Assembly (NCBI GenBank): GCA_964187785.1
Contig: OZ076412.1
Location: 39,866,001 to 39,930,000 of the forward strand
Direction of reading: 5' to 3'
DNA from: Amphiscolops sp. MND2022
Lineage: Eukaryota
Length of the DNA stretch: 64,000 bases
Of this stretch, positions 12,481 to 28,489 are shown piece by piece. The notes under the pieces are model-generated. The model was given only the letters and a program-made list of their open reading frames with translations, was not told the DNA's origin and searched no databases. Each line of letters opens with the position of its first letter. Positions within the stretch are counted from its first letter, which is position 1. The translations under genes were made by a program, and so were the position numbers.

Positions 12481-12946
12481 CAGGTTCAAGCAAGGATTTT
12501 CCGGAATAGGTTATGAAGGTATACTGCGGAATTTGAAATTACACACCCTTGAGTATAGAAGACATCGCGACAAAATTATGAAAGTTTTTAAAACGTAAGA
12601 TACTAGAGGAACCTTCTATTAACAGAAATCCAAGGAACGGAATAATGGAATTAGAAAGAATTTTCCATTAATTCGAAAGAATTTATTCACTGTAGCGGCT
12701 TCCGTTTAATGAAATTCTCAGCCCAAATTTGCGGTGTGAAGTGCGAATATCAACATTTTTAAAGCCAGGACTCAACAATCACTAACATCACTGGTCATTC
12801 GCCATTTTATTTTCAATAACGCGTTCCTGACTCAAAATGGACTCCAGAAGAAATGAGCTGTTTCCCATGGAATAGTTCACTTGTAAAATTATGGTGGCAA
12901 AGATGTAGAAGCATCATTACGCTTTCCTGAGTTTTTGATCAATATG

Positions 12947-13130
12947 AGTAGTGTATATAATCGTATTTGACGCCAGCGCGAAGGGCGCAAGCTGGCTCAC
13001 TTCGTTCGCCCCCTTGCTTCGCCATTCGCTTCGCTCATGGCTACTTCGCGCTAACGTCAAATACGATTATATACACTACTTCTTTACCATCCTTACACCT
13101 ATCGTTAAATACGATTTCTTACACTACTTT
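12947..13130 (+). repeat. Polinton left terminal inverted repeat (self-complementary)
   Basis: Terminal 26-mer AGTAGTGTATATAATCGTATTTGACG, its exact reverse complement at 13055-13080, and a degenerate third copy ending at 13128. Confidence 0.9.
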
Positions 13131-13211
13131 GGTAATACTCTACTAACCATGTTTTAGAATAAAGCTGAAATTCTTTTGAACTGCTAAATTTCTATGAATT
13201 TCACTCTGTAA

Positions 13212-13410
13212 ATGTAAATATTGATTTTCAAAAGAAATTTTTTCAGACTGCTAATTAGTTGAGAAGGTAGATGTAAATATTGATTTTCAAAAGAAATTCT
13301 TTCAGACTGCTAATTAGTTGAGAAGGTAGATGTAAATATTGATTTTCAAACGAAATTCTTCCAGACTGCCAATTAGTTTAGAAGGTAGATGTAAATATTG
13401 ATTTTCAAAA
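13212..13410. repeat. 59-bp tandem repeat x3.3 inside the Polinton left arm
   Basis: ATGTAAATATTGATTTTCAAA... recurs at 13212, 13271, 13330 and 13389. Confidence 0.9.
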
Positions 13411-13646
13411 CAATTAAAAAGAAACGAGAAAAACTTGAGCACTGAAGTGAATTTAATTACACCAAAAATCAATAAAAACACCCAACATTTTCAAAAATTA
13501 TCTCCACTTCTACTGGGTTTTAAGAGATGGGGTTTTCACCATTGTGATCCTCTCTTCCATACGAGTAAAAAGAGATGTCGATGAGCAAAATCCGCCGAGT
13601 AGTTAACAAAACCCATCACCAAACGCATTCATTTGAAACAAGATAA

Positions 13647-27300: not shown

Positions 27301-27955
27301 TAAGTTGACGTTTAATGGGATCCATAAATGTTATGAGAAATATGATAGTTTCACGTTTAAGATGAATGAGGTTCTGATGGATAAGCCAATATATCTTGGA
27401 TTCTCTGTGTTGGAGTTGAGTAAGCTGTTGATGTATGAGACCTACTATGATAAATTTCAACCATATTTTGGGGAAGAAAATATTCAACTTCACTATACCG
27501 ACTGCGACTCAATGGTGTTGAGTATAAAGACAAGAGATATTGTTGAAGACTTATATAACCTCAAAGATTTGTTTGATTTCAGTAATTTAAACAGAGAGCA
27601 TAAGTTGTTTAGTGAAGAAAATAAGAAAGTAGTTGGTAAATTTAAAATTGAAACACCTGGGAGTATTTGGATTGATGAATTTGTTTGTTTGAGAAGTAAA
27701 GCATATTCATATAAATGTGGTAGTGAAAGTTCTAACAAACTAAAAGGTATCTCAAAATCTCAGAGTAAGAATATAAAGTTTGAAGAGTATTACAACTGTT
27801 TATTTGGGGGTGATTATCAAAGAGAATGTGAAAATTTTGTAATTAGATCTATAGATCATGATATGTTTCTTCAAAAGGTTACAAAGAATTCTTTATCTGC
27901 ATTTGATGAGAAGCGTTGTTATTTGAATAATATTGAAAGTATCCCTTGGATGTAA
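24383..27955 (+). CDS. polB: Protein-primed family B DNA polymerase (pPolB), 1190 aa
   Basis: Exo I YGDFE, Exo II FHNFSNYD, Exo III LYLKTDV; Pol A IDANNLYGWAM, Pol B KLLNNAFYGK, Pol C YTDCDS; N-terminal Zn finger, vOTU-like Cys/His and an EndoVII-like insertion. Confidence 0.97.
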   Translation: MNTTNTKYCEVCDKHIHTASFSRHEKSKIHLHNIGVVPGDPIQRRARSVPTLKQLARAKVNLSEKELAKHMINPYYFSKRYEPQYDVNLDQHHPKHLNSKITVKPKYDLPIELLDLNNIFKEMSAIYARLIEQYKFKYQVVFSVIFDKETRDELEQYVSLEVNQSLTWNDIEKYDLEGKTNALIENLEMKDSGWRFCKIASMTIYFYKTVELNGSSYVKIPLRSAAILNIENNDKYCFLWSILAHLHPCENSHPNRVSNYREYFRELKTDGLEFPFKTSDVSKFEKMNNLAINIFELQFYQEGEKWKHKLIPIEVSENNSETVIDLVIYKNHYALIKKLHVFLGKRDSKFVCRRCLSCFTNENVLVKHTERCKQQDITAIRVIKDSHLMWKKHFHKIPLYFRIYGDFECNNKIEGSHIGIKTTNIFKQNPMCNGFYIVSELENVLQSGYHSTFGGNNVEWFVNEVIKIENKMNFYFKNTKKEIVMTQEDEEDFKNSTHCWFCELPLEERAVRDHCHLTGKYRGAAHEKCNINVKQKQSNFIPFMFHNFSNYDCHLFFKTLIDKKSDNVPFHVIPKTNEEYISISYGCIRFIDSYRFLSSSLDGLVKTVDELTILMREFPDNWELLSKKLAYPYEYFKSLDDYDLPISNLERDDYFSRLKNGYPQDSEIQRTNEIIETFKIKTGKELTELYLKTDVVLLADVFEKFIKVSINEFKINPLYCVSLPGFTWECGLKYTGINLQTLQDKDMILMLENNIRGGISSVMGDRYVKSDENKKILYIDANNLYGWAMSQYLPYDDIKFDGNVKLEDILDTPDDSEVGYFVEVDLKYPEEIREKTVNFPFCPENKFSPQDNCTEYMKKMKQDSYVKCKKLICDWTDKKRYLIHYRMLKFYVRHGMIVEKVHEVISFKQSKWLEKYIDFNTQKRNKTKNDFEKDFYKLLNNAFYGKTMENVRNRTKIEFIKKNEEEKMVKWQSKLTFNGIHKCYEKYDSFTFKMNEVLMDKPIYLGFSVLELSKLLMYETYYDKFQPYFGEENIQLHYTDCDSMVLSIKTRDIVEDLYNLKDLFDFSNLNREHKLFSEENKKVVGKFKIETPGSIWIDEFVCLRSKAYSYKCGSESSNKLKGISKSQSKNIKFEEYYNCLFGGDYQRECENFVIRSIDHDMFLQKVTKNSLSAFDEKRCYLNNIESIPWM

Positions 27956-28056
27956 TGTGAATGTCCTTGAGTTTGAGTAATAACTAATAGTATAGAAAGG
28001 GGGATTTGATATTAACTTGAAGGGTGCAAGGAGGGTGAGGGAGCGAAGCGGAGCGG

Positions 28057-28304
28057 AGTAGTGTATATAATCGTATTTGACATTAGCGCGAGGTAGCCAT
28101 GAGCGAAACGGAGCGAAGCGGAGCAAAGCGAGCAAAGCGGAGCGAAGTGGAGTTGAGTGAATGGCTAAGCGATGTGGTGAATGAAGTGAGAGAATCGAGC
28201 GAAGCGAGATCGAGCGAAGCGAGATCGAGTGAAGTGAGATGATCGAGCGGAATGAGCCAGCTCGCGCCTTCGCGCTGGTGTCAAATACGATTATATACAC
28301 TACT
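28057..28304 (-). repeat. Polinton right terminal inverted repeat (self-complementary, expanded loop)
   Basis: AGTAGTGTATATAATCGTATTTGAC at 28057 and its reverse complement ending at 28304; the loop is made of GAGCGAAGC-type repeats. Confidence 0.9.
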
Positions 28305-28489
28305 AATATGGGACCCTAGGTATGTCTGATTTGAAGGGCACTCCGAAGTCTTCAATACACTCTACTGTCTCAATTTTATCACAATCCACGCTTGCTTGGC
28401 TCTATTTCAAGACTTTTGTTTTCTCTCCAAATCGGTGTTTGAAAGTAATAACTTCTCAAGTTCTCGAAACGCGAAAGAGCAAGTAAGGA

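Follow-up and report, generated by a model that had tools for sequence, protein, structure and literature searches.

Animal Polintons may live as autonomous nuclear viruses or as dependents of a larger virus. Both options are considered here for a stretch of DNA from Amphiscolops sp. MND2022 (assembly GCA_964187785.1, contig OZ076412.1, positions 39,866,001 to 39,930,000 of the forward strand), whose full 64,000 nucleotides are called the window here. There is hardly any doubt that positions 12947-28304 of this window are an intact, recently integrated Polinton provirus of 15,358 bp. The class of element is already known; the new part, observed in a single copy, consists of palindromic ends on an element with a protein-primed family B polymerase (pPolB) and of a promoter grammar of the poxvirus type. 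Intactness by itself is unsurprising for a Polinton, as capsid frames that are intact number in the hundreds in this family. The unusual parts are the ends and the start motif, neither of which was mentioned in a preliminary description of this DNA. Since the family is intact and present in high copy number, its poxvirus-type promoter signature opens helper dependence to direct tests, and palindromic ends on a pPolB element offer a second handle on how Polinton ends get primed and repaired.

Ends and replicase of the element

The outermost bases of the element are AGTAGT on the left and ACTACT on the right, and AG...CT termini are a feature of Polintons. On either side follows the hexamer AATATG (Table 1), so that the perfect 6-bp target-site duplication (TSD) and both termini named in the preliminary description have been located. 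The combination of terminal inverted repeats (TIRs) and a 6-bp TSD is thus present, the six-base TSD being a Polinton criterion in the excerpted methods of PMC10748475. The GC content is 30% in the core of the element versus 43% and 38% in the flanks, and 17 open reading frames (ORFs) cover 83% of its length. Two separate insertions of miniature inverted-repeat transposable elements around a core were ruled out because the TSD is found at the outer ends only. An assembly chimera was likewise ruled out by the TSD and by patterned differences between the arms of the terminal repeats. No nested TIR element was found in 13081-15480, and there was no Rfam match.

Both terminal repeats are themselves palindromes. 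The left repeat folds with -45.6 kcal/mol (z -10.4), and none of 200 shuffled sequences was as stable; the right repeat, whose loop is swollen by simple repeats, has a z value of -5.4. One 25-mer occurs in four exact copies, at 12947(+), 13056(-), 28057(+) and 28280(-). When up to 3 mismatches were allowed, the window contained no further copy (0 expected). A third copy further inside the left end has decayed; it has a weak counterpart inside the right end, and this inner homology was matched by 17 of 2000 shuffles. Over their first 37 nt, the four arms differ in four columns. At position 26 the two left arms have G and the two right arms A; at positions 27-28 the two outer arms have CC and the two inner arms TT; and one arm deviates at position 36. 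The identity within each end at position 26 suggests that the outermost 26 nt have been copied within each end. The strings 'hairpin' and 'palindrom' are absent from the available excerpt of PMC10748475 and from PMC11131425, and 'hairpin' is absent from the excerpted text of PMC8502044. The sole precedent for such terminal palindromes that was found in the literature search is a preprint on elements of Halocafeteria seosinensis (bioRxiv 10.64898/2026.07.28.741278, in excerpt).

The only replicase of the element is PolB. Following the domain scheme in the excerpted PMC11161782, it consists of a zinc finger, a terminal-protein (TP)-like domain with Ser192, a putative vOTU domain with Cys237 and His332, a second zinc finger, an exonuclease with an HNH/endonuclease VII insert and the palm, and all six Exo and Pol motifs are present. 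A structure model built from a 60-sequence alignment (mean pLDDT 86.3) contains an alpha/beta domain at about residues 85-208, in which the Ser192-Gly193 loop lies between the last helix and strand, followed by a vOTU-like region; the placement of Ser192 fits the description of the linking residue in the same excerpt. In the fold comparison, which covered residues 390-1175, phi29 polymerase was the best match (Z 19.1, root-mean-square deviation 3.3 over 525 residues; all others Z at most 11.8). It was also the best solved match to PolB (E 3e-17), and in a profile search for solved relatives the zinc fingers alone matched. Among 127 aligned relatives, of 150 listed, the Exo I and Pol aspartates are invariant, and Ser192 is conserved in 115, Cys237 in 126 and His332 in 125. 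Protein priming therefore looks intact, judging from the conserved TP loop and the vOTU residues. The HNH/endonuclease VII module occupies residues 513-530; its strict motif is found in 80 of the 150 listed relatives (P0121-P0270), and His514 in 120 of 127. HNH is thus a trait of this PolB class and hence not specific to palindromic ends, and its candidacy as a specific hairpin resolvase was rejected. Outside the family, the nearest representative of a 50% cluster is 46% identical to PolB, and named viral PolBs reach at most 28%. Alpha and Beta adintoviruses are told apart by PolB class (pfam03175-type with bidnavirus matches, or a divergent type); the PolB of this element has a weak PF03175 score, and its bidna-like structural neighbours are only 20-25% identical.

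Start motif and transcription

The triplet TAA stands directly before the start codon (TAAATG) in 11 of the 14 element ORFs of at least 100 aa, versus 11 of the 347 ORFs shorter than 50 aa (Fisher p 8e-13); the 14 long ORFs include one antisense frame that is probably no gene and two frames with a shared, duplicated upstream region. TAAATG also precedes 3 of the 9 element ORFs of 50-99 aa and none of the 29 flank ORFs of at least 100 aa, the latter being a weak control made up mostly of decayed transposable element fragments. Counted by genes, the motif is found at 13 of the 16 listed starts versus 12 of 531 other ATGs, the list being drawn from the 23 ORFs of at least 50 aa, less ORF 23632 and six frames that are antisense or nested. 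The protease gene and ORF 20505 have TAAAT a few bases upstream of the start, and ORF1 is the sole long ORF with neither arrangement. All 11 long ORFs that are preceded by a stop codon have TAA, versus 11 of 41 short ORFs (p 1e-5). Moreover, no stop of an upstream gene lies within 58 nt of the starts of the ATPase, integrase and major capsid protein (MCP) genes and of ORF 23115.

A second signal is the 11-nt sequence AAAANTGAAAA, of which the element has three copies. The two on the plus strand each lie at -39 of an ORF in the block of small genes leading into PolB, and the third precedes no ORF. Among 15 independent upstream regions, these are the two with a match, both at -39 (shuffle P 0.0009); a duplicated copy at 24344, a one-base T>A variant, lies 39 nt before PolB. 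According to excerpts of PMC5294985 and PMC4542343, TAAAT(G/A) is the late initiator of vaccinia virus and AAAANTGAAAA the early core, and an excerpt of PMC6211774 describes TAAAN in yeast linear plasmids as used to make poly(A) leaders. The promoter motifs that the element would share with a helper-virus lineage thus agree, at the level of sequence, with the published poxvirus consensus. The literature search, mostly at the level of listings and abstracts, found no report of a TAAATG start motif in Polintons. No RNA polymerase gene was detected in the element, and this, together with the near-universal TAAATG and the early core at a fixed offset, makes a helper polymerase the most likely source of transcription.

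We therefore favour, with a confidence slightly short of even, a Polinton provirus that is TP-primed, repairs its ends by fold-back and is transcribed by a pox-like helper RNA polymerase. This reading takes the 6-bp duplication, the intact replicase and integrase motifs, the capsid gene, the palindromic ends and the start motif as observed and adds a predicted cycle and helper. Free linear DNA would be copied by the pPolB by strand displacement, primed from the TP domain (Ser192 loop), which the vOTU domain would cut off PolB. The palindromic ends would fold back locally, and at each end the inner arm would serve as the template for restoring or homogenising the outer ~26 nt. Joining of the outer ends to host DNA would be the task of the rve integrase, which would make a 6-bp stagger, of which the duplication is seen, and the capsid, penton, ATPase and protease proteins would, judging from the gene set, package the progeny. 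The RNA polymerase for transcription would come from a poxvirus-like nucleocytovirus infecting the same cell, and the element would be a virophage-like endogenous hyperparasite, probably with an animal host. There are precedents for parts of this scheme: mavirus-type protist virophages share promoters with a giant virus (Halocafeteria preprint, in excerpt), and polinton-like viruses (PLVs) travel with entomopoxviruses (PMC11296320). It is rather doubtful, although worth stating, that this massively amplified animal Polinton family lives, like a virophage, on a poxvirus-like nucleocytovirus yet to be discovered, and that it combines early and late pox signals with protein priming and self-repairing hairpin ends. 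If that is true, one could predict from promoter grammar which virus helps animal Polintons, and the grammar would explain why Polinton virions are unseen in uninfected tissue. Should both features turn out to be generic or peculiar to this copy, the locus would be no more than an ordinary new family of Polintons.

Several observations weigh against helper dependence and against the proposed role of the ends. One of the 13 TAAATG starts uses the stop of the upstream gene directly and three more lie within 4 nt of it, so that 4 of 13 are compatible with stop-start coupling. The motif may also belong to Polintons in general and have nothing to do with a helper. The null model for the early core was a mononucleotide shuffle, the match was first spotted by eye, and the DNA around the matches is rich in A and in part codes for the preceding ORF. 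A TTTTTNT early terminator is found inside PolB (26168) and none after its stop, which is unlike strict vaccinia-type early transcription. No helper virus gene was found within the window, and the hundreds of copies in the germline point to integration being efficient in the nucleus, which a hyperparasite of the cytoplasm would have to reach by an indirect route. As regards the ends, the within-end covariation is a single site located at a CpG (the host flanks show no CpG depletion, with observed/expected ratios of 0.95-0.97), and pairing of both ends in a panhandle (-137 kcal/mol) exceeds the two hairpins together (-92) in stability. Both the start-motif data and the palindromic ends come from one copy of the family.

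Some of these points would equally follow if the element were an autonomous nuclear Polinton read by host RNA polymerase II, which is a distinctly possible explanation, albeit one that we would not back ourselves. TAAATG would then be a translation context (an in-frame stop guard or a site of termination-reinitiation on polycistronic RNA) or an element-specific initiator, and the early cores would be chance matches in DNA rich in A. The motifs adjoining upstream stops, the misplaced terminator and the very high copy number all fit this picture, as does the tight head-to-tail packing of the genes, with gaps of 0-20 nt at 7 junctions. It also accommodates ORF1, whose upstream region presumably carries Pol II-like motifs, unlike those of the other genes, and which is a candidate for a host-Pol-II-read or captured gene. 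However, stop-start coupling leaves the motif at the divergent and isolated starts listed above unaccounted for, as well as the strict preference for TAA over TAG and TGA. Moreover, initiation is poor with a T at -3, except where a poly(A) leader takes its place, and chance would have to place the early core at the same -39 offset at two unrelated loci.

Three further explanations concern the ends and the state of the element; they are compatible with either the helper or the autonomous reading, and the likelihoods given to them are not exclusive. It is unlikely, but deserves attention, that the palindromes are a by-product, arising from fold-back duplication in end repair or as extra integrase or origin sites, that was copied to both ends and has no hairpin role. 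The decayed third copy of the 25-mer, the loops that drift freely through simple-repeat expansion and the thermodynamically preferred panhandle are in line with this, and accidental annealing was raised as an alternative by the authors of the Halocafeteria preprint (in excerpt). Yet four 25-mers have stayed exact although the third copy decays, and position 26 covaries within the ends. We consider it improbable that the ends are self-priming hairpins of a parvovirus- or poxvirus-like rolling type, resolved by the HNH/endonuclease VII module of PolB, with protein priming being secondary. The fold-backs are stable and leave the 3' end paired next to a template, PolB does match endonuclease VII, and the same model has been proposed for the Halocafeteria elements (preprint, in excerpt). 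Against this stand the conserved TP loop and vOTU dyad, the HNH residues that are common to the PolB class and not tied to palindromic ends, the ordinary inverted orientation of the two ends and the need of integration for free outer ends. Lowest in probability is that the copy is already dead or behaves like a transposon and has ceased to form virions: one accessory gene is probably broken and polinton virions are 'as yet not observed' (Halocafeteria preprint, in excerpt), but all core frames are open, the listed MCP clusters hold many members and the variation of the penton is confined to its central segment, as expected of an exposed insertion.

Capsid family, further genes and flanking DNA

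Out of 3900 candidates, 1476 are homologous to the MCP at E<=1e-10. The best 120 of these are 78-99% identical to it (ENA 119, Logan 1) and represent 700 member sequences; the closest (P0001), which heads an 80-member cluster, differs at 4 of 409 residues. For the penton, 1054 homologues were obtained among 6532 candidates, the best 120 representing 322 member sequences, and the closest (P0273, 30 members) is 99% identical. Among the matches listed, relatives of MCP and penton are sometimes found on contigs of equal length (16 shared lengths; 119 versus 115 distinct ones). There is no named entry among the 240 listed matches to the two proteins. The near-identical capsid relatives in large clusters thus indicate that the element is a young copy of a very large, unnamed family, although some of the matches could be haplotigs or repeat assemblies. 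The recent origin and the poorly described lineage that had been proposed from the letters alone agree with these data and with the low identity to named viral PolBs. The terminal 25-mer had no match in GTDB, the MCP had 44 pattern matches there, none of them confirmed, and nothing was found for MCP and PolB in phage or plasmid records. Identity among pentons falls to 0.37-0.38 at residues 151-225 versus 0.84-0.98 at residues 251-403, with lengths of 302-451 aa, which is what would be expected of an exposed insertion in the centre.

Table 1 Features of the element and its immediate borders (window coordinates)
Feature	Position	Strand	Size and remarks
Left TSD, AATATG	12941-12946	+	perfect match to right copy
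Left terminal repeat, palindromic	12947-13080		134 nt; 37-bp stem, Y-shaped fold; arms 12947-12983 / 13044-13080, 95%
Third, decayed copy of terminal 25-mer	13104-13128	-	4 mismatches
Subterminal tandem repeats	13208-13873		59 bp x3.4 and 103 bp x1.9
ORF1, no family assigned	13932-14672	+	246 aa; 41% GC vs 30% in core
Putative adenain-type maturation protease	15473-15883	+	136 aa; labelled by motifs
Small ORF	15887-16054	+	55 aa; TAAATG start
Putative minor capsid protein (penton)	16058-17269	+	403 aa; hypervariable central insertion
Basic protein	17279-17680	+	133 aa; Cys pairs, amphipathic-looking C-terminus; no family match
Coiled-coil protein	17696-18616	+	306 aa; no match above cut-off
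A32/FtsK-like packaging ATPase	18591-19412	-	N-terminal zinc finger; Pox_A32 E 8e-5; Walker A at residue 86
rve integrase	19633-20484	+	283 aa; D-D-E motifs present; PF00665 E 1.1e-12, 48.5 bits (cut-off 32.6)
Protein without assigned family	20505-21194	+	229 aa
SLATT-like two-transmembrane protein	21199-21735	+	178 aa; below cut-off: PF18181 E 0.079, NF033634 E 0.0098
Double jelly-roll MCP	21794-23023	+	409 aa; PF21738 E 6.4e-20, 72 bits (cut-off 27)
Poxvirus early-core match AAAANTGAAAA	23076-23086	+	39 nt before ORF 23115
Small-gene cluster	23115-24013	+	65, 121, 72 and 57 aa
Second early-core match	24006-24016	+	39 nt before ORF 24045
Zinc-finger ORF	24045-24350	+	101 aa; partial tandem duplicate of PolB 5' end and upstream region
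PolB, protein-primed family B polymerase	24383-27955	+	1190 aa; PF03175 E 9.5e-15, above cut-off
Right terminal repeat, palindromic	28057-28304		248 nt; arms 28057-28091 / 28270-28304, 94%
Right TSD, AATATG	28305-28310	+	perfect match to left copy

The gene set and the profile and fold matches support the assignment to Polintons and adintoviruses made in the preliminary description. Its statement that PolB, integrase, MCP, penton, ATPase and protease are uninterrupted stands for all six frames, four of which (PolB, integrase, MCP and ATPase) have been identified by profile or fold; the labels of penton and protease come from motifs that we take to be diagnostic (His/Asp/Gln/Cys motifs located in the sequence). 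Neither of these two proteins had a meaningful match in Pfam, PHROG, NCBIfam or PDB. The look-alikes of the penton in the Atlas are hypothetical proteins of Nucleocytoviricota (0.96), which serve as a lead only. A sequence search for solved relatives found none for MCP, penton and protease. The Pox_A32 score of the ATPase (22.7 bits) is 0.1 bit under the cut-off of 22.8, and the gene was counted as a packaging ATPase with its Walker motifs present. The single frameshift that had been noticed is most likely the 47-nt overlap, in different frames, of ORFs 23313-23678 (121 aa) and 23632-23850 (72 aa), although this is not proven; the second of these has no start motif, and the two frames may be one broken gene.

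Searches with family profiles (including Pfam, PHROG and NCBIfam) gave no match for ORF1, and the Atlas was uninformative. By analogy, we assume that the basic protein at 17279-17680 is a candidate membrane-active virion protein and the coiled-coil protein at 17696-18616 a candidate virion core protein. Between the divergent ATPase and integrase genes lie CACTAAG-rich 51-bp repeats (19461-19623). Furthermore, a tandem duplication with a 335-bp period (23956-24493) has copied the PolB upstream region and the first exon-like zinc finger, thereby creating the 101-aa ORF, which is 60% identical to PolB residues 3-41 and contains a 36-bp internal repeat.

The neighbouring retroelements had been described as heavily decayed. 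This holds for the adjacent Pao/BEL retrotransposons at 1983-11128 and 28489-35846, two decayed elements whose proteins are only 22-42% alike; their longest frames are 390 and 280 codons, and their long terminal repeat (LTR) pairs are identical at 346/372 and 393/421 positions (93%). It does not hold for a lightly damaged long interspersed nuclear element (LINE) 20 kb from the provirus (48709-52493, minus strand), which is nearly intact, with an ORF1 of 300 aa, endonuclease and reverse transcriptase in two overlapping frames, and frames of 795, 300 and 206 codons. A relic of a LINE reverse transcriptase (11609-12314) lies just left of the insertion site. At 1520-2360, a 378-nt inverted pair (85 nt apart, 92%) has the left Pao LTR (1983-2357) as its right arm, and thus a third, inverted LTR copy abuts the Pao element. 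Arrays of ~175-195-bp repeats with shared inverted segments (38485-40460, 47570-48330 and 56700-57920) are possibly a foldback- or satellite-bearing transposon. A fragment at 46212-46667 (plus strand) reads, by eye, like the first helices of a G protein-coupled receptor and has no Pfam match. At 63053-64000 (minus strand), a long-exon host gene of the major facilitator superfamily (MCT-like) matched, at E<=1e-8, itself and a single paralogue (75%) but no relative with a name, which points to a highly divergent host lineage. The Pao/BEL elements, the receptor-like fragment and the MCT-like transporter suggest that the host is probably an animal.

Comparison with known systems

The element resembles Polintons/Mavericks and adintoviruses (PMC8502044 and PMC11161782, both in excerpt) in the apparent TP-vOTU-EXO-PALM order of its pPolB, the rve integrase, the double jelly-roll capsid and the A32/FtsK ATPase. 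The putative penton and adenain, the small genes before PolB, the SLATT-like gene, the inverted termini and the 6-bp TSD are shared as well. In contrast to these relatives, its short terminal repeats are internally palindromic, its starts carry TAAATG almost universally and it has no close named relative. With the HNH-bearing pPolB2 Polintons of nematodes and oomycetes (PMC10748475, in excerpt) it shares an HNH nuclease that interrupts the exonuclease part of PolB; unlike in those elements, no fusogen was seen. The excerpt calls HNH unique to oomycete and nematode pPolB2, and its occurrence among the listed PolB relatives is wider than this range.

The yeast cytoplasmic plasmids pGKL1/2 (PMC6211774, in excerpt) are likewise linear replicons with a pPolB and a relationship to Polintons; their initiators are TAAAN, and upstream of these lie elements like those of early poxvirus genes. 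However, they bring along an RNA polymerase and a capping enzyme, lack a capsid and stay unintegrated. The PLVs associated with entomopoxviruses (PMC11296320), Polinton-like elements tied to animal poxviruses, provide the ecological model proposed here. They differ in that they are found in occlusion bodies and that two of four have a primase-helicase instead of PolB; promoters or TAAAT are not mentioned in the text of that study, and its supplement holds no genome-level TAAATG information.

The closest parallel for the ends is given by the virophages and PLVs of Halocafeteria seosinensis, in which palindromes inside the TIRs adjoin the TSD (bioRxiv 10.64898/2026.07.28.741278, in excerpt). For these elements, hairpin priming has been proposed, and a subclade has giant-virus-like promoter motifs. 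Unlike in the Amphiscolops element, the palindromes are 52 nt long (subtype 5), the host is a protist, the motif is CroV-like and palindromes occur preferentially together with non-pPolB replicases. Thus, the element works like the palindrome-ended elements of the Halocafeteria type, yet it stands outside that group because its sole replicase is a pPolB.

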